Shown here one piece after another: positions 2 to 39,875 of a stretch of DNA of 64,000 bases. The DNA lies in NCBI GenBank assembly GCA_036003865.1, contig DASYRZ010000158.1:29175-93174 (forward strand), in the 5' to 3' direction. The translations under genes and the position numbers were made by a program. Every line of letters starts with the position of its first letter. The first letter of the stretch is position 1. The notes beneath the pieces were generated by a model. That model made no database searches. It was not told the DNA's origin and saw only the letters and a list, made by a program, of their open reading frames with translations. This stretch comes from Gemmatimonadales bacterium (GTDB taxonomy: Bacteria > Gemmatimonadota > Gemmatimonadetes > Gemmatimonadales > GWC2-71-9).

Positions 2-1201
2 CTAGACAACGCGTTCGACGGCGTGGAAGCGGTCGGACGAGACTTCACATATCGGGTGCGATTCCCCGATGCCGGGATCTACTGGTATCACCCGCACATC
101 CGCGAAGACATCGGCCAGGAGCTTGGCCTGTACGGCAACCTGCTGGTGCGGACCGATTACGGCCCGGTGAATCGCGAGGAAGTCTTGATGCTCGACGATC
201 TTCTCGTTGGCGAGTCGGGACTCATTCCGCTCGGCAGGGATTCGCCGACGCACGCGCTCATGGGGCGGTTCGGCAATCTGTTCCTCGTGAACGGGGAGCC
301 TAACTATCGGCTGAACGTCCAGCGCGGCGAAGTCGTGCGGTTCTATCTCACCAACGCGTCGAACACGCGCACGCTCAACCTCTCATTTCCGGGCGCGCGC
401 ATGAAGCTCGTGGCGACGGATGCGGGACCGTTCGAGCGCGAAGCGTGGGTCGAGAGCGTCGTGATCGCCCCCGCCGAGCGCTACGTCGTGGATGTGCGCT
501 TCTACCGGCCCGGAGAGGTCGCGCTGGTGAACAAGGTCATCGGGCTCGACCATCTCTTCGGTCGCTTCTTCCCGATCGTGGATACCTTCGGCGTCGTCAC
601 TGTGGATCCGCAACGCGTGAATCGCGACCTGGGCGCCTCCTTCACCAACCTTCACCGTCCTGCACCGACCTCCACCAACACCCTCGGTACATTCCGGCGT
701 TTTCTCGACAAGGCGCCCGACCAGACCCTCGTCCTCACACTCGAGACGCACGGCCTTCCATACATCACGGAGCGTCTGATGCAGCTGGACTCGATCTACT
801 TCGCGCCGGTCGAGTGGGGCGGCACGATGCCGATGATGAACTGGGCGTCGACGGGCCGGCAGGTCCGCTGGGTGCTGAAGGACCCGGCGACCGGCCGCGA
901 GAACATGGACATTCACTGGCGCTTCAGGCGGGGCGAGCCGGCCAAGATCCGCCTGGTCAACGAGCGGCGCGCGTTTCACGGCATGCAACATCCGATTCAC
1001 CTGCACGGCCAGCGCTTCCTGGTGCTGGCGGTGAATGGAGTGCCGAACGACAACCTGGCGTGGAAGGACACCGTGCTGGTGCCTGCCGGTGCGGTGGTGG
1101 ATATTCTGCTCGATACGGCAAATCCCGGCGACTGGATGCTCCATTGCCACATCGCCGAGCATCTCTCGACCGGGATGATGACGCATTTCACAGTGAATTA
1201 G
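2..1201 (+). CDS. multicopper oxidase family protein (5' end cut by window edge)
   Basis: Frame is open from nt 2. Copper-ligand motifs HPIHLHG and HCHIAEHLSTGMM near the C-terminus. Confidence 0.8.
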   Translation, partial: LDNAFDGVEAVGRDFTYRVRFPDAGIYWYHPHIREDIGQELGLYGNLLVRTDYGPVNREEVLMLDDLLVGESGLIPLGRDSPTHALMGRFGNLFLVNGEPNYRLNVQRGEVVRFYLTNASNTRTLNLSFPGARMKLVATDAGPFEREAWVESVVIAPAERYVVDVRFYRPGEVALVNKVIGLDHLFGRFFPIVDTFGVVTVDPQRVNRDLGASFTNLHRPAPTSTNTLGTFRRFLDKAPDQTLVLTLETHGLPYITERLMQLDSIYFAPVEWGGTMPMMNWASTGRQVRWVLKDPATGRENMDIHWRFRRGEPAKIRLVNERRAFHGMQHPIHLHGQRFLVLAVNGVPNDNLAWKDTVLVPAGAVVDILLDTANPGDWMLHCHIAEHLSTGMMTHFTVN

Positions 1202-4671: not shown

Positions 4672-6027
4672 ATGTCCATCGTTTCGTCGCTGCAGACGCA
4701 GGTGCACGCGCACATCAGGGCGGCAGCGCTGTTTCGTGAGCCCGGGGAGGCACTCGTTGCGGTCTCGGGGGGCCCGGACTCGGTCGCATTGCTCGATGTG
4801 CTCAACGCGCTTGCGAAAGATCTCGAGCTCCAGCTCGTGGTCGCACATGTCGATCACGGCATTCATGCGGAGAGCGGGAAGGTCGCGGCAGCGGTACGAG
4901 ACCTCGCGCTGCGTTACGCATTGCCATTCGAGCTGGGAGAGTTGCGTCTCGGTCCCGACGCGACCGAAACGGAGGCGCGCGCTGCCCGCTATGAGTGGTT
5001 GCGCGACGTCCAGCGACGCCGCGGTGCGAAGTACCTCGTCACCGCGCATCACGAGGACGATCAGCTCGAAACGATCGTGCTGCGCGCGCTGCGTGGCAGC
5101 GCGACCGCAGGTTTGGCCGGGATTCCCCGGCGCGCGCGCGGCGGGCTGGTCCGGCCGCTCCTGCCGTTCACCCGTCGCGACCTGCTCGCGTATATCGCCG
5201 AACGCGGGCTTCCCGTCCACGACGATCCCGCCAACCGCGATCCGCGCCATCTGCGCTCGTGGGTCCGCACGACGCTCCTGCCGTTACTGACCGAGCGGCT
5301 CGGCCCGCGATTACGGAGTGACCTGCTCGCGCAGGCGCGGCACGCGGCGAGCGATCGCCGCGCGTGGGACGAAATTCTGGATCTCGTCCCGGCATTAGCG
5401 TTTACGGTGGACAGCAACGGCTTTACCGTTGCCCGCGAAGTGCTGGGGGGCTATGATAACGCATTGTCTGTCGCGCTCTTGCGTAGCGCGGCCCGCAGAG
5501 TGGGACTGGTACTCGGCCCGGCGCGTGCTCGCCGCCTGGTGGCGCTGGCAAAGCGCCCATCGGGCCGGCGCCTGTCCCTTGGTGGCGGCTGGTCGGCCGA
5601 AGTGGCGTTCGATCGGTTGCGAGTCGGTCGCGTGCCGGCGGGTGACGTCGAATGCGTGCTGGAGCACGTATACCCGGCGGGGGAGCGGGGCTCGGCCCTG
5701 TTTGGCGAGTTCGCGATCACCTGGTCGCCGGCGGCGGCCCCGGCCCAGATCGAGCGCGCGACGTGGACGACGTGGCTGGACAGTGCGGCGTGGGAGGTAC
5801 GCCGGCCCGCTCGCGGCGATTCGCTGGTGCCGTTGGGCGGCGTAGGGCACAGGCCGGTGCGCCGGTTATTAATGGAAGCACGGGTGCCGCGTAGCGCGCG
5901 GGCGGGTTACCCGGTCGTGTCGAGAGGCGAAACCATTCTCTGGGTCCCGGGCATCTGCCGCAGTGCGGATGGCGTGCCGGCACCCGGAACTCGTGCGGTG
6001 AGGCTGGATGTTATCGAGTATCGCTGA
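4672..6027 (+). CDS. tilS: tRNA(Ile)-lysidine synthase
   Basis: PP-loop VAVSGGPDSVALL. Start taken at ATG 4672 (MSIVSSLQ), because the upstream part of ORF 4132.. is antisense to the flavin reductase gene. Conserved tilS-hpt-ftsH order. Confidence 0.85.
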   Translation: MSIVSSLQTQVHAHIRAAALFREPGEALVAVSGGPDSVALLDVLNALAKDLELQLVVAHVDHGIHAESGKVAAAVRDLALRYALPFELGELRLGPDATETEARAARYEWLRDVQRRRGAKYLVTAHHEDDQLETIVLRALRGSATAGLAGIPRRARGGLVRPLLPFTRRDLLAYIAERGLPVHDDPANRDPRHLRSWVRTTLLPLLTERLGPRLRSDLLAQARHAASDRRAWDEILDLVPALAFTVDSNGFTVAREVLGGYDNALSVALLRSAARRVGLVLGPARARRLVALAKRPSGRRLSLGGGWSAEVAFDRLRVGRVPAGDVECVLEHVYPAGERGSALFGEFAITWSPAAAPAQIERATWTTWLDSAAWEVRRPARGDSLVPLGGVGHRPVRRLLMEARVPRSARAGYPVVSRGETILWVPGICRSADGVPAPGTRAVRLDVIEYR

Positions 6028-8527: not shown

Positions 8528-9789
8528 GCGCTCCCACCGCAGACCTCTCTAAACTCCGGATCAATCGCGACGACCCGCCGCCCGCGGTCAAGCGGGCGCT
8601 GGGTCGCGTGCTCTGGCTGGTCGCGGCCGCGGTGGTCATCGTCGCCGTTGTCGTGGTGATTGGGCGGCGCGGAGGTGGCGTGCCAGTGCAGGTGGTGACG
8701 GTAGCGACAACAACGGGCGGTACAGGGGCGGTAGGGGGCGGTAGCGGATCGGTTGCCGTTGTCGCGAACGGTTACGTCGTCGCCCGTACGAAAGCTGCTG
8801 TCTCCGCGAAGATTCCCGGGCGGCTCGCCGTCCTGAGCGTCAGCGAAGGATCTGTTGTTCAGAAGGGTCAGATCATCGCGCGGCTCGACAACGCGGACTA
8901 CGCCGCGGCGGTCGGGCAGGCGGAGGCCGGTCTCGCGAGCGCGAAAGCTACGTTGATCGAAGCCCAGTCAGACCGGGACCAGATGCAGCGCGACTACGTG
9001 CGCGTGCGGGACATCCACGCCCAGAATCCCAATCTCGTGTCACCGCAGGACGTCGAGAACGCCGACAGCCGCGCTCGCCAGGCCGACGCGCGCTTCGGCG
9101 CGCAGTCGGCGCGCGTGGATGCCGCCGCTGCGTCGCTGCGCATGGCGCAGGCCAATCTCGAGAACACCTACATCCGCGCGCCGTTCAGCGGCACCGTCCT
9201 GCGGAAGGAAGCCGAGGTCGGCGAGGTGGTCGCGCCGTCGGTCGGCGGCGGGTTGACGCGCGGGGCCGTCGTGACGATGGCCGACCTGGCGACGCTCGAA
9301 GTCGAGGTCGACGTGAACGAAGCCTACATCGCCCGCATTAGCGGCGGGCAGCAGGCGCGCATCACGCTCGACGCGTATCCCGACACCTCGTTCCGCGGCA
9401 CGGTCCGACAGGTGGTGCCGACGGCCGATCGCCAGCGGGCGACGGTGCAGGTGAAGGTGTCGATCGTGGATCGCGATCCGCGCATTCTCACCGAGATGGG
9501 AGCGAAGGTTGAGTTTCTCGAGGCGCCCGCTCGCGCCGCTGCCGGCGCGTCGCCCGAGGTGGCTCGGCGGCGGATCATGGTGCCGGCCGCCGCGGTGCGG
9601 TCCGAGGAGGGGCGTTCCGTCGTCTGGCTCGTCCGCGACGGGAAGTTACAGAAACGTGACGTTGACGCAGGTCCGGTCAGCGGTAGCTTCCGCGAGATTC
9701 GTTCCGGCCTATCGGGTGGAGAGCAGCTGCTGGTTGGTGGCGTCGACAACCCGCGCGACGGTCAGCGCGTAAAGCCGAATAATCAATGA
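8524..9789 (+). CDS. efflux periplasmic adaptor (HlyD/MacA family)
   Basis: N-terminal TM segment, coiled-coil hairpin region, beta-barrel C-terminus. GTGA overlap with the ftsH stop. Confidence 0.85.
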
Positions 9790-9850
9790 TCAATGATCAT
9801 TGATCATTGATCATTGATCATTGATCACTCAACATTCAACATTGGACATT
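9784..9850. repeat. heptamer tandem arrays: 2x CAATGAT + 4x CATTGAT (perfect 26 nt palindrome, six GATC sites), then 2x CAACATT + GGACATT
   Basis: Read directly from the sequence. The array overlaps the adaptor stop codon and fills the AT-rich gap before the ABC ATPase gene. Confidence 0.9.
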
Positions 9851-9857
9851 CTTTAGC

Positions 9858-10535
9858 ATGGCCCTCGTCGAAGTCCGCCACGTCCACAAGTCATTTACGC
9901 GTGATACGCAGACGATCGAGGTGTTCGAGGATCTCACCCTCGACTTCGCGCAGGGCAGCTTCACGGCGCTGATGGGCCCGTCCGGCAGCGGCAAATCCAC
10001 GCTGCTCAACCTGATCGCGGGTCTCGACAAGCCGACCAGCGGCACCATCACGGTAGGTGGCGCGGCCGTGAGCGCGATGAGTCCGTCCGAGCTGGCCGCC
10101 TGGCGCGCGCGGAACATCGGCTTCGTCTTTCAGTCGTTCAACCTGCTGCCGGTGCTCACGGCGTTTCAGAATGTCGAGCTGCCGCTCCTGCTCACGAATC
10201 TGTCGCGCAAGGAGCGCGATGAACGGGTGCGCATCGCGCTCGACGTCGTCGCCCTCTCCGACCGCCTGGACCACTATCCGCGGCAGCTGTCGGGCGGTCA
10301 GGAGCAGCGCGTCGCGATCGCCCGCGCCATTGTCGCCGATCCGACGCTGATTCTGCTCGACGAGCCGACCGGCCAGCTCGATGCCAAGAGCTCGCACGAA
10401 GTCCTGGCGCTGCTCGGCCGGCTGAACAGCGAATTCGGCAAGACCGTACTCATCGTGACCCACGATGCCCACGCCGCCGAGCGCGCGAAGGCGACGTTGC
10501 ACCTCGACAAGGGCGTGCTGGAGAAGGCCGGATGA
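9858..10535 (+). CDS. ABC transporter ATP-binding protein (MacB/LolD type)
   Basis: Walker A GPSGSGKST, signature LSGGQEQRVAIARA, Walker B LILLDEPTG. Confidence 0.92.
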   Translation: MALVEVRHVHKSFTRDTQTIEVFEDLTLDFAQGSFTALMGPSGSGKSTLLNLIAGLDKPTSGTITVGGAAVSAMSPSELAAWRARNIGFVFQSFNLLPVLTAFQNVELPLLLTNLSRKERDERVRIALDVVALSDRLDHYPRQLSGGQEQRVAIARAIVADPTLILLDEPTGQLDAKSSHEVLALLGRLNSEFGKTVLIVTHDAHAAERAKATLHLDKGVLEKAG

Positions 10536-25106: not shown

Positions 25107-27053
25107 ATGGACCTGTCGCAGTACGCCGAGCTGTTCCTGGCCGAGAGCCGCGAGCACTTGAGCGCCTGCAACCAGTTATTGCTCGAGTGGGAGCGGAATC
25201 CGGCGTCGACCGAGCCGGTCGGTGGTCTGTTCCGCGCGGTCCACACGGTGAAGGGGATGGCGGCGACGATGGGCTATGGCCGCGTTGCCGATCTCTCGCA
25301 CCGGATGGAGAATCTCCTCGACAATCTGCGCCGCAGCGCGCGCGCGCCCGCCGAAGACCTGATTCAGCTGCTGTTTCGCGCCACCGATGCGCTCGAGAAG
25401 GCGGTCGAGCTCGCCGTCGCCGGGCGCGAGCGGGAAGCCGATCTCGCGATCCTCGCCGACATCGATCGCGCCGCGCAACAAACGAAACCTGCCGCGCAAC
25501 CAAGCGCGCTCGCGCGCGTGTTGGGTGAGTCCACTGAGTCCTCAGACGCGGACTCCTCGCCGAGCCTACCTGCTGCGTCTGCGGCGCCTGCCGCGTCTCG
25601 CGGATCCACCCGCCTCATCGGCGTCACCATCCGTGCCGAGGCACCGTTAAAGGGTGGTCGTGCGATGCTCGTCATTCGGAAGGTGCAGACCCTGGGCACC
25701 GTCCACCGCATACAGCCGCCTCCCGCCGCGTTCGAGTCGGACGACTTCGATGGCCGGTTCGCGTTCGAGCTCGAGACGGCGGCGGCCCGGGCCGACATCG
25801 AGGCCGCCGTCCGCGCCGTGGGAGACGTCGAGCGGGTGACGTTCGGCGGCGGGATCGATGAGGGGCAGGTCAGTCCGGCCGAAAGCGTGGCCGGCGGCGG
25901 GCGCAGCCGGCACATTCGCGTGGACCTGCGGCGGCTCGACACGCTGATGGATCTGATCGGCGAGCTCGTCACCGAGCGCGGCCGCCTGAATGAGCTGGCC
26001 GCGCGCTGGGTAGGGCGCGATCCCGAGATCGACGAGGTGGCGATTCACATCTCGCGGCTGTCGGCCGATCTCCAGAACGAGATCATTCAGGCGCGCATGA
26101 CGCCCGTGTGGCAGGTGTTCGATCGCTTTCCGCGGCTCGTGCGCGATGTCGCGCGGCAGCTCGGCAAGCAGATCTCGTTTCGCGTCGAAGGAAAAGAGAT
26201 CGAGCTCGATCGGGAAATCCTCGACGCGCTCGGCGATCCGCTGATGCACCTGCTCCGCAACGCCGTGGATCACGGCATCGAGCCGCCCGCCGAGCGCAAG
26301 CGCCACAAGAAGAACCCCGAAGGCGAAATCGTCCTGGCCGCGGTGCGCGAGCGCTCCAGCGTGGCGATCAGTATTTCGGACGACGGGCGCGGCATCGATC
26401 GCGGCGAGATCCTCGCGAAGGCGAAGAAAGAAGGCATCGTCGGGCCGCACGTCGAATCGCTCTCCGACGACCAGCTGCTCCGCGTGCTGGCGCGGCCGGG
26501 CTTCTCGACGGCGGAGTCGGTGACGAGCGTCTCGGGCCGCGGCGTGGGGATCGACGTCGCCATGACGCGCATTCGCGCGCTGGGCGGGTCGATCGAGATC
26601 CGCACCGAGCGCGGCAAGGGCACCGCCTTCGTGCTGCGGCTGCCGGTGACGCTGGCGATCGTGCGCGCCCTGATCGCCGCGGTGGGTCACGAGCGCTATG
26701 CGCTGCCCCTCACGTACGTCGCCGAGACGGTCGAATTTGGGACGACGCCGCTGACGACGATGGAAGGTCGCGACGCGATCGTGCTGCGTGATCGCGTGGT
26801 GCCGCTGGTTGATCTCCGGAAGCTTCTGGGAACGAATGGCGGCGCTCCCTCGCCGCCCCCTCGCCGCCCTGTGATCGTGCTCGAGATGGGCGAGCGGCGC
26901 GCCGGGATTGTCGTGGACGGCATGTTGAGCCAACAGGAAATCGTCGTGAAGGGATTCGACGCGCCGCAGGGGACGCTGCCGGTCTTCAGCGGCGCCACGA
27001 TCATGGGTGATGGCGTGCCCGCGTTGATCCTCGATGCGGCCGGTCTGGTCTAG
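25107..27053 (+). CDS. cheA: chemotaxis histidine kinase CheA
   Basis: Hpt HTVKGMAATMG, dimerisation region, N-box HLLRNAVDHGIE, G1 DDGRGID, G2 GRGVGID, C-terminal CheW-like P5 domain. Confidence 0.95.
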   Translation: MDLSQYAELFLAESREHLSACNQLLLEWERNPASTEPVGGLFRAVHTVKGMAATMGYGRVADLSHRMENLLDNLRRSARAPAEDLIQLLFRATDALEKAVELAVAGREREADLAILADIDRAAQQTKPAAQPSALARVLGESTESSDADSSPSLPAASAAPAASRGSTRLIGVTIRAEAPLKGGRAMLVIRKVQTLGTVHRIQPPPAAFESDDFDGRFAFELETAAARADIEAAVRAVGDVERVTFGGGIDEGQVSPAESVAGGGRSRHIRVDLRRLDTLMDLIGELVTERGRLNELAARWVGRDPEIDEVAIHISRLSADLQNEIIQARMTPVWQVFDRFPRLVRDVARQLGKQISFRVEGKEIELDREILDALGDPLMHLLRNAVDHGIEPPAERKRHKKNPEGEIVLAAVRERSSVAISISDDGRGIDRGEILAKAKKEGIVGPHVESLSDDQLLRVLARPGFSTAESVTSVSGRGVGIDVAMTRIRALGGSIEIRTERGKGTAFVLRLPVTLAIVRALIAAVGHERYALPLTYVAETVEFGTTPLTTMEGRDAIVLRDRVVPLVDLRKLLGTNGGAPSPPPRRPVIVLEMGERRAGIVVDGMLSQQEIVVKGFDAPQGTLPVFSGATIMGDGVPALILDAAGLV

Positions 27054-27057
27054 GTTT

Positions 27058-27132
27058 TCACACGCTAAAGCGTGCGCTCGGCCAGCGCTGCCCTTAAGGG
27101 CAATGTCTGCCGAGCACACCCTTCAGGGTGTG
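27058..27132 (+). repeat. structured intergenic element, copy A (three hairpins)
   Basis: CACGC-TAAA-GCGTG; GCTCGGC..TGCCCTTAAGGGCA..GCCGAGC; ACACCC-TTCA-GGGTGT. A paralogous copy lies at 39790-39866. Confidence 0.85.
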
Positions 27133-27147
27133 AACTAAGGGAGCGAC

Positions 27148-27765
27148 ATGGAAGACGTTCGCGATCTAAAAGCGCTGCAGCTCGACGCCCTCAAAGAGGT
27201 GGCGAACATTGGGGCCGGCCACGCGGCCACGGCGCTCTCGCAGCTCACGCACCGCCGCATCATGATCTCCGTGCCCGAGATCAACATCGCGCGACTGGAA
27301 GACGTGCCCGGGCTGATCGGCGATCCGCAGGAGGTCGTCGCCGCGGTGCTCATGCACATGCTCGGCGACCTGACCGGCCGGACGCTGTTGATCTTCCCGG
27401 AGCCCGTGGGCCGGCAGCTGTGCGACATGCTGCTCAAGCGGCCGCTCGGCACGACCAAAGCGTTCGAGACGATCGAGCAGTCGTGCCTCAAGGAAGCCGG
27501 CAACATTCTGTCGGGCGCCTACATGAACGCGCTGTCGGAGTTCATGGGGATGCTGCTGTTGCCGTCCGTGCCCAGCCTGGTGGTGGATCTCTCGGCCGCA
27601 GTCCTCACGACGACCTACCTGAACTTCGGGCACGATCGCGACTTCGTGTTTTGCGTCGAGACGGAGTTCAACATCGACGCTCAAGACGGGTTGCGCGGCC
27701 ACTTCCTGCTCCTGCCCGACCTGGCGTCGCTCAAGGCCATCTTCGACGCCATTCGGCTGACTTGA
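27148..27765 (+). CDS. cheC: CheC-family CheY-P phosphatase
   Basis: Two E-x2-N active-site repeats (LKEVANIGAGHAA and LKEAGNILSGAY). Confidence 0.85.
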   Translation: MEDVRDLKALQLDALKEVANIGAGHAATALSQLTHRRIMISVPEINIARLEDVPGLIGDPQEVVAAVLMHMLGDLTGRTLLIFPEPVGRQLCDMLLKRPLGTTKAFETIEQSCLKEAGNILSGAYMNALSEFMGMLLLPSVPSLVVDLSAAVLTTTYLNFGHDRDFVFCVETEFNIDAQDGLRGHFLLLPDLASLKAIFDAIRLT

Positions 27766-30464: not shown

Positions 30465-31601
30465 ATGGCGATCGAAGGACCGCTTCGCGAGCTCGGCATC
30501 CACGACGTCTTCCAGCTGCTCGACCTGAGCCGGAAGACGGGCGCGCTGCGCGTCACCTCGGACCTGCGGCACAACGAAGGGAAGATCTACTTCGACAACG
30601 GCGTCGTGGTGTCGGCGGAAATCCGCAGCAATCCGCATCCGCTCGGCGCCCTGCTGCTCCGCACCGGCAAGATCGCCGAGGCCGACCTCGAGCGCGCGCG
30701 GGACATGCAGCAGCGCCAGGGCGACAAGCGCCGCCTCGGGGAGATCCTCGTGGCGCTCGGCGTCATCACGCAGCGCGAGGTCGAGCGCCAAATTCACTTC
30801 CAGATCGAAGAGGTCGTCTTCGAGGTCATGAGCTGGAACGAGGGCTACTTCTCGTTTGTGGAAGAAGCCGAGAGCAAGGTCCCCACCGAGGTGACGGTGC
30901 GCATTCCGGTGGAGGCACTGCTGATGGAAGGCGCGCGGCGCATCGACGAGTGGTCGCGGATCGAGAACCGCATTCCGCACGTCGGCGTCGTGCCGTCGCT
31001 CGCGCCCCCTCCCGAAGGCGGCGGCGGTGAGCTGGACCTGTTGCCGCCGGAGTGGGAAGTGCTCGCGCTCATCGATGGCGAGCGCTCGGTCCGCGGGCTC
31101 GCGACGGAGCTGGGGCGCTCCGATTTCGAAGTCGCCAAGACGCTGTTCGGCCTCGAGAGCGCCGGCGTGATCGTGCTGGTCGATCCGGGAACGGCGCGGC
31201 GCGGGAGGCCGAGTGCCGCCTCCGACCTGGCGGAGCTCGTCGCGAAGGCCGAGCGCGCGCTCGTCGCCAAGGATCTCGATGCCGCGCGGGCGGCGGCGGA
31301 GCAGGCCAGCAGCATGCAGCCGCACGACGGGACGATTCATATCCTGCTCGGCCGCATTCAGCTGGCGCAGGGTCACGCCTCCGCGGCCGCCGAGGAGCTG
31401 CGGCGCGCACTCCGCCTCGATCCGCTCCTCGCCGCGGCGCATCGCCAGCTCGGATTTGCACTGGTCGCGATGGGGCGGTTTGGTGAGGCCGTGCAGAGCT
31501 GGGATCAGTGGGAGCGCCTGGCCCGGACCCCAGAGGAAGAAGCGCAGAAGGCCGACGTCCAGCGCGCCCGCGAAGCCGCGCGAGTGTTCACGCATGGCTG
31601 A
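30465..31601 (+). CDS. PATAN/DUF4388 domain protein with MshEN-like helical insert and C-terminal TPRs
   Basis: N-terminus GPLRELGIHDVFQLLDLSRKTGALRV; tandem RLGxxLVxxGxI...Q motifs; TPRs at the C-terminus. Confidence 0.75.
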   Translation: MAIEGPLRELGIHDVFQLLDLSRKTGALRVTSDLRHNEGKIYFDNGVVVSAEIRSNPHPLGALLLRTGKIAEADLERARDMQQRQGDKRRLGEILVALGVITQREVERQIHFQIEEVVFEVMSWNEGYFSFVEEAESKVPTEVTVRIPVEALLMEGARRIDEWSRIENRIPHVGVVPSLAPPPEGGGGELDLLPPEWEVLALIDGERSVRGLATELGRSDFEVAKTLFGLESAGVIVLVDPGTARRGRPSAASDLAELVAKAERALVAKDLDAARAAAEQASSMQPHDGTIHILLGRIQLAQGHASAAAEELRRALRLDPLLAAAHRQLGFALVAMGRFGEAVQSWDQWERLARTPEEEAQKADVQRAREAARVFTHG

Positions 31602-32439
31602 CGACATCCGCGCGCTGTCCGCGCAGCTCGCCCAGGATCCGCAGAGCCTCGTGTTCCTGCGGCTCGGCGAAGCGCTGCGGCGCAAAGGACAGCTCGACGC
31701 CGCGCTGCGTGTCGCCATGAACGGACTGGAGCGGCATCCGCACCTCGCCGATGCGCACGATTTGTACGCGCGTATCCTCACTGATAAGCACGATTACGAG
31801 CATGCGTTCGACGAGTGGGACATGGCGGTGCGGATCGCACCACACCACACGGGGGCGCTGAAGGGGCTCGCCTTCCTCTATTTCAAGGTGGGAGACATCG
31901 AGCAGGCCGAGGCCCATCTCGCGGCTGCGAAGCGCGTCGAGCCCGACGACCCCACCATCGAGCAAGCATTCGAGATGATGCGCGGCGGCCGCAGACCGTC
32001 GTTGCCCGAACCGACTCCTGCCCCCGAGCCGGCAGCGACCGCCGCCGCATCTACCGCCGCCGTGTCGAGCAGTGGCTTTGATGAGGCACGCGTGTTCGCC
32101 GGCCTCGAGGGCGCCAACGAAGGCCTGCTGCTGATCGACGGCGCAGGACGGGTGCTGGGCGGAGCGTTACGAGATCGCTCCGGTACGGATGTCACGGACA
32201 GCGTCGCAGCGTACCTTGCCGGTGTGTCTCAGGAAGCGGCGCGTACCGCTAAGCTGTTGGGCCTCGGCGCCTGGAACGGGCTGTCGGCGGAAGGGCAGCA
32301 CGGCAACGTGCATCTCGCCCATCCGACGCCAGAAGCCTTGTTGCTGGTCGTGCGCGAACGGGGCATGCCGCTCGGCCGCCTCGCGATCCTCGCGCAGCGC
32401 GCCACGATCATGGCGCAGCGCTGGCTGGAACGGCAATGA
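31594..32439 (+). CDS. TPR + Roadblock/LC7-like fusion protein
   Basis: Start at ATG 31594. N-terminal TPRs, Pro/Ala linker, C-terminal ~110 aa resembling a Roadblock domain (GLLLIDGAGRVLGG..). Confidence 0.6.
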   Translation: MADDIRALSAQLAQDPQSLVFLRLGEALRRKGQLDAALRVAMNGLERHPHLADAHDLYARILTDKHDYEHAFDEWDMAVRIAPHHTGALKGLAFLYFKVGDIEQAEAHLAAAKRVEPDDPTIEQAFEMMRGGRRPSLPEPTPAPEPAATAAASTAAVSSSGFDEARVFAGLEGANEGLLLIDGAGRVLGGALRDRSGTDVTDSVAAYLAGVSQEAARTAKLLGLGAWNGLSAEGQHGNVHLAHPTPEALLLVVRERGMPLGRLAILAQRATIMAQRWLERQ

Positions 32440-32783
32440 GCAAGGCGCTCGATATGATCACACGGGTGCGCGGCGTCCGCGGGGCGATGCTCGTTTCCGC
32501 GGAAGACGGGCTCGTGGTCGCCGAGCAGCTGATGGAGGGGATCAAGGGCGGCGCCGTCGCGGCGCTTGCCGCGAGCCTTGCCGGTCGCCTGCGGCGCGCG
32601 ATGGAGGCCGCGGGCACCGGAGCCAGCGTCTTTTGGCATCTTCAGGCGGAGCAGGGCGCGCTGCTCGTCGTCCCGGGAGGTGACCCCGTCGGCAGTATCC
32701 TGGTCGTCGCGGTGGCAGAGCCGGACGTGAACATCGGCCTCGTGCGGCTGGAGCTGCTGCGCGCCGCGGGGGCCGTCGTATGA
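32436..32783 (+). CDS. Roadblock/LC7 domain protein (MglC-like size)
   Basis: 115 aa; VRGVRGAMLVSAEDGLVVAE...GGAVAALAASL pattern; ATGA coupling. Confidence 0.75.
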   Translation: MSKALDMITRVRGVRGAMLVSAEDGLVVAEQLMEGIKGGAVAALAASLAGRLRRAMEAAGTGASVFWHLQAEQGALLVVPGGDPVGSILVVAVAEPDVNIGLVRLELLRAAGAVV

Positions 32784-33256
32784 GTCCGCAGACACGCGCG
32801 GTCGAAAACTGGACGCTGCAGCCGTTGACGGACTTCGTGCGCGAAGCGTCGGCCCGCCTGGTGCTGGTGCTCACGCCGGCCGGCCAGGTCCTCGCGCAAT
32901 CGGGATTCTCGCGCGCGGTCGATGTGATGTCGGCCGCGGCCCTCGCGGCGGCGATTGTCGCGTCCACGGCGGAGCTCGCGCGCCAAATGCGGCAACCGCC
33001 GTTCGGCGCGCTCAGCCATCAGGGACCCAAGACCGGTTTCTTCCTCGCGACGTTCATGACCGAACGCGGGACGCTCGCCGTCCTCGCCGTGTACGACCTC
33101 GATGTTTCATCGCTCGGCTTGGTGCAGTTATTCTATGAGCAACTTGCGGCGGAGTTGAAGGCGGCGAGCCCCAAAGGGGGGGTCCAGAAGCAGGTGCTGG
33201 CCGCGGATTTCGAGCGCGAGCTGACGGACAGCCTCAACACGCTGTTTGGGAGATAG
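32780..33256 (+). CDS. mglB: MglB-like GTPase-activating protein (Roadblock/LC7)
   Basis: Aligns by eye with M. xanthus MglB: ARLVLVLTPAGQVLAQSG vs AKVVFLVDKNGQLISSAG; SSLGLVQLFYEQLAAEL vs TSLGLVRLRIKKASDEL; C-terminal ..LNTLFGR vs ..DNLFSE. Lies directly upstream of mglA. Confidence 0.8.
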   Translation: MSPQTRAVENWTLQPLTDFVREASARLVLVLTPAGQVLAQSGFSRAVDVMSAAALAAAIVASTAELARQMRQPPFGALSHQGPKTGFFLATFMTERGTLAVLAVYDLDVSSLGLVQLFYEQLAAELKAASPKGGVQKQVLAADFERELTDSLNTLFGR

Positions 33257-33259
33257 GCC

Positions 33260-33862
33260 GTGTCCTTGGTCAACTTCACGACCCGCGAGATCACGTGCAA
33301 AATCGTCTACTACGGACCGGGACGGTCCGGAAAGACGACCAATCTCCATTACATCTATGGGCGGGTGCCGGAGACGCGCCGCGGGCGCATGGTCTCGTTG
33401 GCCACGCAGACCGACCGCACCTTGTTCTTCGACTTCCTGCCGATCGACCTTGGACAGATTTCCGGGTTCTCGACGCGCTTCCAGCTCTACACCGTCCCCG
33501 GGCAGGTCTACTACAACGCCACGCGGCGCCTCGTGCTCCAAGGCGCTGATGGCGTCGTCTTCGTCGGCGACAGCCAGGCGCGGCAGCTCGATGAGAACAT
33601 CGAAAGCCTACAGAACCTCCAGAGCAATCTGCTCGAGCATGGCGTCGATGTGCGCACCATGCCCCTGGTGATGCAATACAACAAGCAGGACTTGCCGCGC
33701 GAGCTGATTCTCACGACGGCCGACCTCGATGACGCACTCAACTTTCGCAGCGTTCCGAGCTTTGGGGCGGACGCGCTCCATGGCAGAGGGGTGTTCGAGA
33801 CGCTGAAGGCGGTCTCCGAGCTTGTTCTGAAGAAGCTCGCGGCGGGAAGCCCCGCAGCATGA
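33260..33862 (+). CDS. mglA: MglA-family Ras-like GTPase
   Basis: P-loop [19 protein letters not shown], MglA-specific TVPGQ (in place of DxxGQ), NKQDL. High similarity to M. xanthus MglA along the whole length. Confidence 0.92.
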
Positions 33863-35808
33863 CCAGCTCCCTCAATCCCCGTTTCACGTTCGAGACCTTC
33901 GTGGTGGGCGCCGCGAACCGTCTGGCCGTCACGGCCGGCCGCACCGTCGCGGAGAATCCGGGTTCGGCCTACAACCCGCTCTTCATTTATAGTGGCTCCG
34001 GACTGGGAAAGACCCACCTGCTGATGGCCATCGGCCACGCCGCCAAGGCCATCGCGGCGCAGCTCAACATCGAGTACCTCACGCTGGACGAGTACGTCGA
34101 GTCGTTCCATGCCGCGATTGCGGCGGGGCAGGGCGACGCGTTCCGCCGCCGCTTCCAGAACGTGGCTGTCCTGCTGGTGGACGACGTCCAGTTCCTCACG
34201 AATCGCAAAGAGATGCAGGCCGAGCTGCTGCGCCTCACCGAAGCGCTGCAGCAATCGGGGCATCAGATCGTGCTCGCGAGCGATCGACCGCCGGCGGAAA
34301 TCGCGGATTTGGACGAACGGCTCATCTCGCGGTTCTCGGGTGGGCTCGTGGTGGACATGGGCATCCCCGACTACGAAACCCGGGTCGCGATTCTGCGGCG
34401 CAAGGCCGAGGAGCGCGGCTCGTCGTTCCAGCCGGGCGTGCTCGAGACGGTCGCGAAGGTGGAGTACCCGAACGTGCGCGAGCTGATGGGTGCGCTCAAT
34501 CGCTTGATCGCGTTTCAGGCGGTCAACGACATGCCGATCAACGCCGAAGCGGCCAGCAAAGTCCTCGGGATCCCGACCAGGCCATCGACCGCCGCTGCAT
34601 CGACCGCCGCCTCATCGACCGCCGCCTCATCAGATGAGTTCTCGCAGTTCTTGACCGACGTCACGACGACCGTGGGCAAAGCCGTCGAGGCGTGGCGCGC
34701 GCGCGTGACCGAGGCGATCATGCGCTGGGAAGGTGAAGGCTACCGCACCGGGAGGCTCGAGAAGCTGCTCGATCAGGAGAGTCCCGCCGCGGTGGACGAG
34801 GTGATCGCCGCCTACGTGCAGGATGTCGAGCGGCTCAAGGCGCTGGAGGCGGAAGTCGCGGTGCTGGATCCGCAGGCCGCCGGCGGGAAGGTGTTCCGCG
34901 ATCCCGACCAGATGGAGGCGGCCGAAGCCGCCGCGGCGAAGGTGCGCGACGGCGCCGCGCCGCCGCCCGCGCCATCGGGGGCGTTTCCGCTCGAGAGCTA
35001 CCTCGCCGGTCCGTCCAATGAGGTGGCGCTGAACGCCGCGCGCGATGTGCTGGCCAAGCCCGGCAAGAAATACAATCCGCTCGTGATCGTGGGACGCAGC
35101 GGGCTCGGCAAGACGCATCTGCTGAATGCCATCGGCCTCGAGCTCGCAAAAAAGAAGAACGCGGTCGTCGCCTGTCTCTCGACCCAACAGTTCGTGGACG
35201 AGCTGATCGCGGCCATCGACGGCAATCGGGTCGATTGGTGGCGCGCCCGCTACCGCCGCGCGACGGCGCTGCTCCTGGACGACATCCACCTGCTGGCCGG
35301 CAAGGAACGCACGCAGGAAGAGCTGTTCAATCTGTTCAATCAGCTCGTCGACGCCGACCGCCAGCTTATCTTCACGGCGCCCGCGCATCCCAACACGCTG
35401 GAAGGACTCGAGGAACGGATCATCTCGCGGCTCGAGGGCGGGTTGGTTGCGCAGATCGCCGAGCCGGACAAGGAGCTCCGCCGCAGCGTGCTCGAGCGGC
35501 TGCTCACGCAGCAGGGGATACCGGTCGAGCCGGCGCTGCTCGATTATCTGGCGGACCGGCCCATCGACTCGATCCGCAATCTGAACGGCATCGTGCAGCG
35601 CGTGGTGGAGGCGGCGGCGGCGCAGGATGCGTCCGTGAGCGCCGGCCTGGCGCGCGAAGTCTTGGAAGGCGCGCCCCCGCCCCGGCGCACGGTGGGGCTG
35701 CGCACCAGCGGGATCGTGGTGTCGAGTGCCGGGGGCGTGCGGAGCCGGGAGAAGATGGTCTGGGATTGGCCCGCCGCCGCCGATCGTGTCATCGAGGATT
35801 TGCGCTAA
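33859..35808 (+). CDS. protein with two tandem DnaA-type AAA+ modules and no DnaA domain IV
   Basis: Module 1: [50 protein letters not shown]. Module 2: [54 protein letters not shown] overlap with mglA. Confidence 0.88.
34584..34628 (+). repeat. 3x 15-mer CATCGACCGCCGC(C/T)(T/G) tandem repeat (encodes [16 protein letters not shown] linker)
   Basis: Read directly from the sequence; lies in the linker after the first DnaA-like module. Confidence 0.85.
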
Positions 35809-37424
35809 TGGCGATCAAGGGCTCGCTCAAGGAAGCATCGCTCCCCGACGTGCTGCAGCTGCTGGCACTGGGGCAGAAGACCGGCTGCCTGTCGATCGCC
35901 GACCGCTCCAACTTCGGCTACATCTACTTCGACAGGGGCCGCATCTGCTACGCGTCCATCGTCAACCGCCGCGACCGCCTCGGCGACATTCTCGTCAAGC
36001 ACGAGAAGATCACCCAGGATCAGCTCGACGCCGCGATACACCGCCAATCGAAAGAGCGCACCAAGAAGCTGGGTGAGATTCTCGTCATCCAGAACGTGCT
36101 GACGCAGCAAGAGCTCGAGCGGTACATGCGCATGCAGATCGAGGAGTCAGTCTACTACCTGTTCACGTGGACGCAGGGGACGTTCAATTTCGAGGCCGAC
36201 GTCCGGCCGGAGCAGCAGGACTTCCTCGTCTCGATCAACCCGGAGTCGCTGCTGCTCGAAGGCGCGCGCCGGGTGGACGAGTGGGGACTGATCGAGAAGA
36301 AGATCCCGTCGTTCGATCTGATCTTTCTCGTGGACCGCGACCGCCTCGAGATCAGCGACGCCAAGCTGACGGAGATTCAGGACCGGCTCCTGCCCCTGCT
36401 CGACGGATCGCGCGACGTGAACGGGGTCATCGAGGACTCGGGGTTAGGCGAGTTCGAGGTCGGGAAAGCGCTCTACGGCCTGGTGACCGCCGGGTTCCTG
36501 CATCGGGCGGGCCGTACCGCCAGCGCCGAAGACCTGAAGATGACCGACGCCCGGGTGGAGGAGCATCGCAATCTGGGCATCGCCTTCTACAAGACGGGCA
36601 TGCTGGACGAAGCGGCACGCGAGTTCCGCCGCGTCGCCGAGCTGCGCGCGACCGACGGCAATGCCCATTTCTTCATCGGCCTGGTCGCGCTCAAACAGGC
36701 GCGCTGGCGCGAGGCCATGGAGGCGCTGCGGCTCGCCGCCGAAAAGGGCGGCTCGCGGCCGGCCGTGCTCCACAATCTCGGCCTTGCCTACGAGCAGCTC
36801 GGCCGGCTCGAGGACGCGGATGCCGCGTATTCCGAGGCGGCGACGCGCGCGCGCACCGACCCGCGCGTGTACGTGGGGTGGGGCATCGTCGCGCTGAAGC
36901 AGGGCGATCACGCGAGCGCCGCCGGCCGGCTCGACCGCGCCAAGGAGCTGTTCGCCGCCAAGGTGCCGCCCATCTGGTACTGGGCGCGCGCGCTCGCCGC
37001 GGCGGCCGCCGGCGATTTCGACACCGCCGAACAGGTGGCCACGCAGGCGGTCGAGGCGCATCCGCACAGCGGCGTGCTGCGCAACAATCTGGCCGTACTG
37101 CACGAGCTGGCCGGGGCGCTGCCGCAAGCCGAGGAGCTGGCCCGCGCGGCGCTGCACGACGAGCCGTCGCTGCCGCAGCTCTCCAAGAACCTCGGCGATC
37201 TCGCCTACCGCGGTTCGCGCTACGACGAGGCGTGGGCGCTCTATCAGCGGGCGATCGAGCTGGCCCCCGAGCTGGGCGACGACGTCTACTTCAAGCTCGG
37301 CAACATCGCGTACAAGCGAAACGACCGCCAACAGGCGAGCGACTTGTGGCGTCGCGCGCTCGAGCTGAATCCCAAACACGAGCTCGTCAAGGCGAATCTG
37401 GACACGTTGAGCAGTTTGTCGTGA
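35808..37424 (+). CDS. PATAN/DUF4388 domain protein with MshEN-like insert and long TPR region
   Basis: Start at ATG 35808 (TAATG). GSLKEASLPDVLQLLALGQKTGCLSI; RLGDILVKHEKITQDQLDAAIHRQ and KLGEILVIQNVLTQQELERYMRMQ; at least 8 TPRs. Confidence 0.8.
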   Translation: MAIKGSLKEASLPDVLQLLALGQKTGCLSIADRSNFGYIYFDRGRICYASIVNRRDRLGDILVKHEKITQDQLDAAIHRQSKERTKKLGEILVIQNVLTQQELERYMRMQIEESVYYLFTWTQGTFNFEADVRPEQQDFLVSINPESLLLEGARRVDEWGLIEKKIPSFDLIFLVDRDRLEISDAKLTEIQDRLLPLLDGSRDVNGVIEDSGLGEFEVGKALYGLVTAGFLHRAGRTASAEDLKMTDARVEEHRNLGIAFYKTGMLDEAAREFRRVAELRATDGNAHFFIGLVALKQARWREAMEALRLAAEKGGSRPAVLHNLGLAYEQLGRLEDADAAYSEAATRARTDPRVYVGWGIVALKQGDHASAAGRLDRAKELFAAKVPPIWYWARALAAAAAGDFDTAEQVATQAVEAHPHSGVLRNNLAVLHELAGALPQAEELARAALHDEPSLPQLSKNLGDLAYRGSRYDEAWALYQRAIELAPELGDDVYFKLGNIAYKRNDRQQASDLWRRALELNPKHELVKANLDTLSSLS

Positions 37425-38697: not shown

Positions 38698-39787
38698 CAC
38701 CGTCCGTCCGACGGTCGTGGTTGCGGACGACAGCGCACTCATGCGGCGCGTGCTGTCCGACGTCCTGGGTGGGGGGGATGCCGATACGGGCGAATTCCGC
38801 GTCGTCGCCACCGCGCGCGACGGGCTGGACGCGATTCGGAAGGTGCATCAGCACAAGCCCGACGTCGTGACGCTCGATCTCGAGATGCCGCAGCTCGATG
38901 GCCTCGGCGCCATCGGCTACATCATGTCGGAGTCGCCGCGGCCGATCGTCGTGGTCAGCGCGCACGCGGGACCGGGCACGCAGGGCGCGATTCGCGCGCT
39001 CGAGCTCGGCGCGGTCGAGATCGTCGCCAAACCGCCCCCCGAGGTCTTCGGTCATCCGCGCGCCGCGCTCGAAGCGCTCGCGCCGCAGCTCATCGCGGCC
39101 GTGCGCCGCGCGCTCGCCGCCGATGTCTCGCACGTCAAAGTGCTGGCGCGGCCACCGGCACCGGTGGTGCATCCGCCGGAGCTCGCGTTGCGCGGCCGCG
39201 CGGTGCTCGCCGTGGGCGTCGCCGCGTCGACCGGTGGCCCGCGCGCACTCGCCGACGTCATCCCGCGCCTCCCGACCGGCCGCGGCGCCGCGATCCTCAT
39301 CGTGCAGCACATGCCGCCGAAGTTCACGCGGAGTCTCGCGGAGCGGCTCGATTCGATGAGCCGCTTGCGTGTCGTCGAGGCGGCTGAGGGTGCACCAATC
39401 GTCGCGGATACGGCATTCGTGGCCCCCGGCGATTATCATATGCGAGTGCGTCTTGCTCCCGATGGACCGGTCATCGCGCTCGATCAATCCGCCCCCCTGT
39501 GGGGCGTTCGCCCCGCGGCCGATCACCTGTTCCGTTCCATCGCCGAGGTGTACGGCGGCCGTGGTGTGGGGATCGTCCTCACGGGGATGGGCCGCGACGG
39601 GGCCGGCGGGCTGCGCGCGATCCATGATGCCGGCGGGACCGGCCTCGCCCAGGATCGCGAGACCGCGGTGATTCCGGGGATGCCGGTTGCGGCGGTGCAG
39701 GCGGGCGGCGTCGATGCCGTGCTGCCGCTGGGTCAGATCGCCGACCGCGTCGCGGCCGAGCTGATGCGAAAGGGATCGCGGTCGTGA
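38681..39787 (+). CDS. cheB: protein-glutamate methylesterase CheB (REC + esterase)
   Basis: REC domain ([21 protein letters not shown]); catalytic region [10 protein letters not shown] and [10 protein letters not shown]. Confidence 0.93.
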
Positions 39788-39789
39788 TT

Positions 39790-39866
39790 CGACACGCTAA
39801 AGCGTGCGCTCGGCGGGGCATTGTCCTTAAGGACAATGGTGTGCCGAGCCCACCCTTTAGGGTGGG
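39790..39866 (+). repeat. structured intergenic element, copy B (three hairpins)
   Basis: CACGC-TAAA-GCGTG; GCTCGGC..ATTGTCCTTAAGGACAAT..GCCGAGC; CCACCC-TTTA-GGGTGG. Paralog of 27058-27132. Confidence 0.85.
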
Positions 39867-39875
39867 AATGCCGCG

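Follow-up and report, generated by a model that had tools for sequence, protein, structure and literature searches.

The chemotaxis (che) gene cluster on contig DASYRZ010000158.1 of a Gemmatimonadales bacterium raises the question of what kind of element occupies its only two sizeable gaps. The window, by which we mean the whole stretch of 64,000 nucleotides (nt) analyzed here, contains a plus-strand string of genes from 18280 to 42500, and according to the codon-based gene call the sole sizeable gaps in this string are those between cheA and cheC (copy A of the element) and between cheB and cheW (copy B). A preliminary description of this DNA had tied the structure to the Che supercluster, where it would set the expression of three gene blocks, and had listed an element like the repetitive extragenic palindromes (REPs) among other possible roles. 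It is this last role that the evidence favors. Very probably, each copy is a member of a family of doublets of the REP, BIME (bacterial interspersed mosaic element) or REPIN (REP doublet forming hairpin) type that resides in soil Gemmatimonadales and is mobilized by a Y1 enzyme. The family is dispersed, its fold is conserved with compensatory changes, its copies lie 3′ of genes in either orientation and vary between presence and absence at orthologous sites, and in three contigs copies bracket a Y1 transposase gene.

The Same Element in Both Gaps

That the two gaps contain the same element was confirmed, as were the coordinates given for it. The 23-mer ACACGCTAAAGCGTGCGCTCGGC, common to both copies, occurs exactly twice in the window, even with three mismatches allowed (chance expectation 0.01). 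The covariance model R1, built from 79 relatives and run with filters off, finds copies A and B as the only copies in the 64 kb, with 95.7 bits on the plus strand and 91.2 bits on the minus strand for copy A, and 85.5 and 82.7 bits on the two strands of copy B. A candidate third copy at 4815-4879, the sole further model match below E = 0.1, was rejected: it scores 18 bits and is plain coding sequence without the motifs. An AT-rich patch at 9788-9872 (G+C 0.31-0.45 in a window of ~70% G+C) also gave weak matches in the model scan. Comparison with Rfam, which the preliminary description had suggested, yielded no family at or near the gathering threshold at either copy; only three tRNAs pass the gathering thresholds in the window, and in permissive E-value mode the best match at copy A is a microRNA model with 20.4 bits against a threshold of 90.

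A Dispersed Family with a Symmetric Plan

Contigs carrying relatives or further copies are labeled with L-numbers (e.g., L082). The conserved left end of the element, the 19-mer GCTAAAGCGTGCGCTCGGC, was found at 12 genome loci; nine of these lie in metagenome-assembled genomes (MAGs) of Gemmatimonadota, with one or two per genome and in differing gene contexts, and the remaining three are chance matches in other phyla. Two of the nine MAG loci are truncated; truncated copies stand in L004 and L012. A scan of metagenomes with the pattern GCTCGGC N6-14 CCTTAAGG N6-14 GCCGAGC, in which hairpins 1 and 3 were left free, returned at least 120 contigs, mostly from soil, giving at least 138 copies that adjoin unrelated genes, and the covariance model adds copies without the scan pattern. 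The preliminary description had itself named dispersal as the test of a link to the che cluster, and with copies beside so many unrelated genes the link in substance fails. The DNA sampled, which consists of stretches and not of whole genomes, gives densities between 0 per 82 kb (che regions of relatives) and 1 per 32 kb: there are two copies in the 64-kb window and ~15 extra copies in 656 kb of flanks.

Nearly all copies have one flanking hairpin of a "P" type (CACCC) and the other of a "Q" type (CAGGC or CACGC). The Q unit, CA[G/C]GC-TRAA-G[C/G]CTG, and the P unit, CACCC-TTYA-GGGTG, are unlike and stand in inverted orientation, and their unlikeness prevents a long hairpin. The spacer between them is conserved and itself palindromic, GCTCGGC...CCTTAAGG...GCCGAGC, and every loop in the family is of the form C-TNNA-G. 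The consensus is its own reverse complement, with model scores that differ by no more than a few bits between strands, and either DNA strand, or a transcript of either, can fold as three hairpins closed by a weak TTC/GAA stem. With the order of P and Q taken as an arrow, copies downstream of a gene read Q-to-P in 29 cases and P-to-Q in 16.

Two variants extend this plan. In composite copies (L090 673-986, L052 358-484, L020 313-444, and L133 9841-9970) two hairpins, with TGAA-type and TTYA-type loops, take the place of the central one, which makes a nested repeat of the same plan; this composite form occurs upstream of the Y1 gene in two lineages. In a second subfamily an outer stem, CCGTG/CACGG, makes a four-way junction. 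Copies of this second subfamily abut tRNA-like genes in L105, L013 (2490-2577), and L077 (1295-1382), where ARAGORN reports an unusually long "tRNA-Glu(ttc)" and "tRNA-Val(cac)". In L105, a tandem duplication of ~445 nt at 2218-2962 comprises the element, a spacer and an 88-nt tRNA-like gene, and one copy of the element runs straight into a tRNA 3′ fragment (GGTTCGAATCCCACCACCAGCACC). An origin of the element from tRNA was considered and set aside: its 4-nt loops are unlike tRNA arms, and the case in L105 is a tandem duplication. The attC site of integrons was rejected, as the R″/R′ core sites are absent and the neighbors are housekeeping genes.

Three Local Hairpins Are Conserved

Hairpin 1 comes close to being the reverse complement of hairpin 3 (CACCC-TTYA-GGGTG). 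When a window copy is folded within its wider context, the two therefore pair with each other, and on either strand the minimum-free-energy (MFE) structure is one long, imperfect hairpin. The energies for copy A are -46.1 kcal/mol (long hairpin) and -41.3 (three hairpins); copy B trimmed to the element folds as three hairpins, at -49.9. The folds are much more stable than those of shuffled sequence (z-scores of -5 to -7).

To judge between the two folds we turn to covariation in alignment A2, which holds 79 copies of the same subfamily as the window copies. As these copies come from the scan with a fixed central stem and loop, invariance in that part is uninformative. The three-hairpin model has 92.6% of its cells paired, compared with 29-40% in slid controls, and 12 of its pairs are changed on both sides; its covariation score is 0.173 versus 0.077 in shuffles, and none of 500 shuffles reaches 0.173, a shuffle statistic that is inflated by kinship among the copies. 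Hairpins 1 and 3, which the scan had left free, are 93.0% and 97.5% paired, with two-sided changes at 7 of their 12 pairs, and the outer TTC/GAA stem is weak (68% paired among the 79 copies). In hairpin 1 (alignment columns 10-14 with 20-24), pair 12-22 is GC in 57 copies, CG in 19 and UA in two, and pair 13-21 is GC in 74 and CG in five. The inner stem of the central hairpin shows UA in 59 and CG in 19 at pair 42-51, and CG in 37, UA in 12 and UG in seven at pair 39-54. Hairpin 3 has AU in 36, CG in 29 and GU in 10 at pair 68-84, CG in 69 and GC in 10 at pair 72-80, and CG in 71, GC in five and UA in two at pair 71-81. The parts that the scan had fixed are seen to vary in copies found by the model only: the outer stem of the central hairpin shows compensation in L056 and L041 (GCCCGG../..CCGGGC), and the center variant GCGCTTAAGCGC, in copies without the scan pattern, is a compensatory change in the otherwise "invariant" part.

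The single long hairpin was rejected as the conserved structure, since its variable positions (pairs 12-81, 13-80, 21-72, and 22-71) are unpaired in 61-70 of the 79 copies. As read from the alignment, the conserved fold is therefore three local hairpins. For the two window copies the MFE fold misleads: there the long hairpin is preferred, or close to a tie in energy, owing only to a chance likeness of their two hairpins. The two structural claims of the preliminary description thus hold across the 79 copies, both the three local hairpins and the compensatory differences between stems, the latter in the very test with additional copies that it had put forward; its folding check supports the three hairpins as the conserved fold, but not as the MFE of the window copies in wider context, which is the long hairpin.

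The same stems bear on the suggestion that the selection acts on structure in RNA. A structure selected in one RNA strand is expected to tolerate G:U and to avoid A:C. On the sense strand, the stems hold 31 G:U and 24 A:C pairs, among ~1,250 Watson-Crick pairs. The lack of an excess of G:U over A:C fits a need for pairing on both DNA strands, or a symmetric substrate; with stems this close to pure Watson-Crick pairing, and with both orientations (29 vs. 16) downstream of genes, selection in RNA is not what the data show.

Filled, Empty, and Decayed Junctions

Orthologous junctions indicate how copy A arose. In six syntenic relatives (L139-L142, L147, and L148; CheC 80-95% identical) the cheA-cheC junction is empty, with a spacer of 9-15 nt. 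The closest of these, L147 (CheC 95% identical), reads GTC TAG, then GGAGAGGGC, then ATG, and the filled site of the window reads GTC TAG, then GTTTTC...GTGAACTAA, then GGGAGCGAC and ATG. Copy A is thus an insertion of ~85 nt (27054..27138, with ends defined to ±1-2 nt by the comparison of filled and empty junctions), specific to the lineage of the window and placed between the cheA stop codon and the ribosome-binding site of cheC. The Shine-Dalgarno sequence of cheC, AGGGAG (27138-27143), is preserved 3′ of the insertion.

At the cheB-cheW junction, the empty state is an overlapping ATGA, seen in L145 and L146 (CheW 84-85% identical), and five sequences are filled: the window, L149 (identical CheW), L143 (97%), and L049 and L008 (86%). 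This pattern of filled and empty sites makes copy B older than copy A, and its insertion broke a translationally coupled junction. The preliminary description had excluded recent duplication, which is half right: it does not apply to copy A, a recent lineage-specific insertion. Copies at the cheB-cheW site can also decay, as two relatives demonstrate. In L143 the copy has a loop change, a stem-breaking T-to-A and a C-to-T, and in L144 (9954-10001; CheW 90% identical) it lacks exactly the central hairpin, so that hairpin 1 is joined to hairpin 3. The deletion in L144 looks like excision, or like replication slippage of a palindrome.

No consistent target-site duplication was found at the insertions, the mean longest shared flank word being 3.82 nt versus 3.63 nt in mismatched controls, as is expected for Y1 enzymes. 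Some copies do have short direct repeats beside them: CTA(G/A)G (copy A), CCG(A)TGA (copy B), and TCATTC (a site shared by L034, L044, and L058).

Placement Next to Gene 3′ Ends

Genes were called with a codon log-odds caller trained on the Pfam-verified genes of the window, whose calls are approximate in the metagenome contigs. The copies (at least 138) are essentially all intergenic. Among 107 that could be classified, 80 lie between codirectional, 18 between convergent, and nine between divergent genes. Where a gene 3′ end faces an element (128 cases), the hairpin follows the stop codon at a median distance of 4 nt, and for 20 of these ends a TGA or TAA in the hairpin loop serves as the stop codon. 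This is the classic distribution of REPs. In L017 (2087-3740) and L128 (2474-4112), three and two copies, respectively, stand between successive small genes whose products start with a prepilin-type GFTLIEV motif, so the element can accumulate within one operon other than che. A transposase between the closely spaced copies of L017, L128, and L087 was sought and not found, the open reading frames (ORFs) there being prepilin-like or unrelated.

A Y1 Transposase Gene Bracketed by Copies

In three contigs, two copies 400-550 nt apart enclose an ORF of ~130 amino acids (aa), at 11942-12358 in L082, 411-821 in L066, and 475-867 in L020. The three ORFs match Pfam Y1_Tnp (PF01797) over its full length (E of 2e-18 to 3e-19), and the gene order is syntenic: gyrA, a copy, the Y1 gene, a copy, and an alcohol-dehydrogenase-like gene (adh). 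The gyrA-Y1-adh locus is syntenic in L082, L020, L066, and L133, with 65-73% protein identity; in L133 a composite copy stands upstream of the Y1 gene and none downstream. A homolog 68% identical to the L082 protein lies in the same locus on all 24 contigs read.

A database search returned 437 Y1 homologs at E <= 1e-10, and those with a name come from Gemmatimonadales or Gemmatimonadetes MAGs. They are labeled "IS200/IS605 family transposase" by NCBI and, for some, "REP element-mobilizing transposase RayT" by JGI, and the protein clusters mostly map to one to five contigs. The protein is core-only, with ~126-135 aa. In 25 aligned homologs the HUH (histidine-hydrophobic-histidine) motif THVH and the tyrosine motif Y[LI]E.Q..HH, in which the first H is sometimes R, are invariant, and LRWA.EYS and Y...Q..HHP are conserved. 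The protein passes the NCBIfam IS200/IS605 model NF033573 (56.5-65.5 bits; cut-off 55), and the solved structures that it matches best are those of IS200-like transposases (2f4f, ISDra2 2xm3, and IS608 2a6m). Repeated copies of a whole insertion sequence (IS) at different sites were not found in the contigs examined, which are not whole genomes; all occurrences are at the one syntenic locus.

Two other, more distant Y1 genes each have a hairpin repeat type of their own at their flanks. In L051 (690-1290), a different Y1 gene (916-1257; 27% identical) has simple hairpins CCCCGCCCTGACGGGCGGGG, three upstream and one downstream, in what is a second, classical-looking pair of REP and RAYT (REP-associated tyrosine transposase) on a contig that also carries the three-hairpin element. 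In L101 (469-1210), a 36% identical Y1 gene (728-1096, minus strand) stands among composite, truncated, and half copies of the second subfamily.

Comparison with Known Systems

The family resembles the BIMEs of Escherichia coli and the REPINs of Pseudomonas, with their enzymes RAYT/TnpA-REP, in its short palindromic units arranged as inverted pairs with a spacer (PMC3116915, PMC3337134, PMC6006769, PMC3733652), and, at the level of the whole family, in its many extragenic copies, mostly just 3′ of genes. Heterodimers of unlike REPs are described in E. coli and Pseudomonas aeruginosa, as are structured conserved spacers in head-to-head dimers (PMC3733652), and the Gemmatimonadales doublet is likewise made of two unlike units with a structured spacer. 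A low-copy, vertically inherited Y1 gene bracketed by a repeat that is dispersed elsewhere is a REPtron (PMC6006769), and the bracketed gene resembles one in being a low-copy Y1 HUH gene that is vertically inherited at a stable locus and flanked by cognate repeats. The different Y1 lineages with repeat types of their own (L051 and L101) are a further likeness to RAYT systems. Unlike in REP systems, the fold consists of three local hairpins (in subfamily 2, a four-way junction) with all loops of the form C-TNNA-G, and conservation is highest in the spacer stem, which the scan pattern had, however, fixed. The enzyme also differs from RAYT class 2, as it is without the Y---NP motif and fails the NCBIfam RayT model.

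With the IS200/IS605 insertion sequences and their noncoding derivatives (palindrome-associated transposable elements, PATEs) the system shares a core-only Y1 protein that passes the IS200/IS605 model, hairpins that flank the gene, and the lack of a consistent target-site duplication. It differs from them in that the gene is neither multicopy nor mobile among the contigs examined, being always between gyrA and adh, in that both of its flanks are the same complete element and not distinct left and right ends, and in that there is no tnpB and solo elements far outnumber the gene. The nearest subclass appears to be TnpAY1 1.2, which is known from Cyanobacteria and Bacteroidetes as low-copy, with the entry "REP: no" and the motifs DH[IV]H and WQ (Quentin et al. 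2018, PMC6006769, Table 1). The Y---Q--HH motif, a short core close to IS200, low copy number, and the absence of IS-like behavior are shared with this subclass; however, the Gemmatimonadales motifs are THVH and WA, and the gene is bracketed by a dispersed repeat. With its other two signature motifs different, membership of subclass 1.2 is not established. Our literature search, of incomplete coverage, returned no paper on this element or on a REP system in Gemmatimonadetes, and the element is probably of a variety that is undescribed.

A Proposed Mechanism

By analogy with E. coli TnpA-REP and IS608 TnpA, whose action on their hairpins is the model for the mechanism (PMC3479197, PMC6006769), the Y1 enzyme would recognize the flanking hairpins in single-stranded DNA, excise the element and reinsert it, cutting and rejoining beside the hairpins. 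Intact stems would then reflect the need to stay a substrate, as only copies that can fold would be mobilized, and the selection would act on the element and not on the host. In the che cluster, copy B would have entered the overlapping cheB-cheW junction earlier, and copy A the 9-15-nt spacer between cheA and cheC recently. Any effect on che expression would be a by-product, and might take the form of a barrier to 3′ exonucleases, of lost translational coupling between cheB and cheW, or of interference with ribosomes; this last is possible because 4-7 nt separate the hairpins from the preceding stop codons (cheA and cheB). REPs in E. coli stabilize the mRNA upstream of them, and a REP within ~15 nt of a stop codon lowers the translation of the upstream gene.

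More tentatively, and with slightly more doubt than confidence, we propose that the two components form a REP-transposase partnership of an undescribed kind, in which a tagless doublet of three hairpins (or a four-way junction) is served by a domesticated, vertically inherited, IS200-like class 1 Y1 enzyme with the motif Y---Q--HH.

Weighing the Alternatives

Several observations weigh against a mobile family of REP type. The foot of a canonical REP carries a GTAG or CGTC tag (as defined in PMC3733652 and PMC6006769), but the feet here are TTC...GCTCGGC and GCCGAGC...GAA, and the alignment contains no GT[AG]G or CGTC tag. The long hairpin that gives REPINs in the strict sense their name is not conserved in the Gemmatimonadales doublet, and the curated RayT model NF047646 gives the enzyme only 27-30 bits against a cut-off of 80. 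No Y1 gene lies within the 64-kb window, so that taxonomy and the likeness of the elements are the grounds for assuming that gene and element co-occur in this genome, and no copies were found in the four 20-kb che regions of relatives. Cleavage and transposition by the Y1 enzyme we infer entirely, by analogy. The orthologous cheB-cheW copies show compensation in situ, with T-A in the inner stem in the window versus C-G in L008; combined with the position immediately behind stop codons, such compensation would suit a function at the level of the host as well.

Such a function is the substance of an alternative that we consider unlikely, in which the family is kept mainly for the host as a generic post-stop RNA module, either a barrier to 3′ exonucleases or a device for operon polarity, effective in both orientations owing to its symmetry, and in which spread by Y1 is secondary or has ceased. 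It would account for the median distance of 4 nt from stop codons, for the 92% of classifiable copies that face at least one gene 3′ end, and for the under-representation of gaps between divergent genes (9 of 107); the cheB-cheW copy has been kept across lineages (the window, L049, and L008) with its compensatory change, and the effects of E. coli REPs on mRNA stability and translation provide a parallel. However, the empty orthologous sites of close relatives indicate that che genes work without the element, copies decay at orthologous sites (L143 and L144), the equal counts of G:U and A:C speak against selection in one RNA strand, and purifying selection that removes harmful insertions would likewise leave copies at 3′ ends. 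Far less credible still is a cis-regulatory or processing RNA specific to the che supercluster, be it an RNase site, a stabilizer or a protein-binding RNA, that splits the operon into three blocks as the preliminary description had it. The two copies do fill the only sizeable gaps of the cluster and do fold beyond shuffled stability (z-scores of -5 to -7), yet this reading is refuted by the present evidence: the element adjoins unrelated genes in at least 120 contigs, the cheA-cheC spacer is 9-15 nt long and free of the element in six syntenic relatives, cheB and cheW overlap in two relatives, the 97%-identical L143 carries the stem-breaking T-to-A and L144 has lost the central hairpin, the sense strand has no G:U excess, and no Rfam family comes near threshold.

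Two further alternatives were weighed. One, to which we give hardly any credence, is a miniature inverted-repeat transposable element (MITE) of a DDE transposon, with the outer ~23 nt as terminal inverted repeats and a target-site duplication on insertion. The ends of the element are indeed imperfect inverted repeats, and short direct repeats stand at some copies (copy A, copy B, and the L034/L044/L058 site), but the duplication is not consistent (3.82 vs. 3.63 nt), the "inverted repeats" covary as local hairpins and not with each other, and the only bracketed transposase found is a Y1 HUH enzyme, which makes no such duplications. The other, which is very improbable, is an array of sites on double-stranded DNA, bound by a dimeric protein or by a factor of the nucleoid or gyrase type, or a bidirectional terminator. 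Strong symmetric conservation (GCTCGGC, CCTTAAGG, and C-TNNA-G in every loop) agrees with binding, and E. coli BIMEs bind gyrase and IHF. Compensation in both arms, however, is a signature of intrastrand pairing and not of half-site recognition, and as for a terminator, there is no T-run after the hairpins (the sequence after hairpin 3 is GAACTAAGGGAG in copy A and GAATGCCGCG in copy B), and most copies lie within strings of codirectional genes, where a strong terminator would be harmful. A REP-type doublet mobilized by a Y1 enzyme thus remains the reading that we favor.

Layout of the Window Copies and Their Surroundings

Sequence reading and model R1 place the structured core of copy A at 27057..27134. 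It comprises the outer TTC (27057-27059) and GAA (27132-27134), hairpin 1 (27061..27074, CACGC-TAAA-GCGTG), which is a Q-type REP-like unit, the central hairpin (27076..27115), and hairpin 3 (27116..27131, ACACCC-TTCA-GGGTGT), a P-type REP-like unit that is inverted relative to hairpin 1. The stem of the central hairpin pairs GCTCGGC (27076-27082) with GCCGAGC (27109-27115) and encloses an inner hairpin, TGCCC-TTAA-GGGCA (27089-27102). Copy B (39788..39868) has the same layout, with hairpin 1 at 39793-39806, the central hairpin at 39808-39849, and hairpin 3 at 39850-39865, and lies between the cheB stop codon (39785-39787) and the cheW ATG (39876).

Pfam confirmed the identities of the flanking genes as CheA, CheC, CheB, and CheW. 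The plus-strand cheA (25107..27053, the start being taken from the codon-based gene call) has the domains Hpt, P2, H-kinase_dim, HATPase_c, and CheW, and its stop codon TAG (27051-27053) precedes the outer stem of copy A by 3 nt; cheC, with the CheC domain, occupies 27148..27765 on the plus strand, with its ATG at 27148. Within the che cluster, from ~30465 to 37424, are PatA_N/DUF4388-TPR proteins, two Roadblock/LC7 proteins, an Arf-like small GTPase, and a Bac_DnaA-domain ATPase. These genes are an MglA/MglB-like module embedded between cheC and cheR, and the module is kept in every Gemmatimonadales relative examined (L139-L146). Elsewhere in the window, a 39-nt tandem repeat (TGACCGCCGCATTTGGTTTTTGACCGTCGCCTCGTCCAT; 4.7 copies, 95% match) lies at 2759-2940, ~60 nt after a tRNA gene (2625-2699).

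Implications

For annotation, both che gaps should be labeled as repeat insertions and not as che regulators, and the covariance model can flag copies in Gemmatimonadales MAGs that would otherwise be mistaken for small RNAs or riboswitch-like leaders. More generally, compensatory changes alone are no sign of a host regulatory RNA, as the requirement to remain a transposase substrate and the presence of subfamilies derived from different master copies give the same pattern. The insertion that splits the overlapping ATGA of cheB and cheW is also a natural experiment on translational coupling.

If the tentatively proposed partnership is real, IS200-like ancestors gave rise to systems of the REP type, with a replicator and a single-copy enzyme, on more than one occasion, and the enzyme may recognize branched DNA in place of a single hairpin; the nearest subclass (1.2) had no associated repeats in the 2018 survey (PMC6006769). 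To the study of mobile elements, the family offers a REP-like system in a poorly studied soil phylum, with filled, empty, and partly deleted orthologous sites, a compact enzyme of 130 aa at a fixed locus, and what would be an unusual branched substrate.

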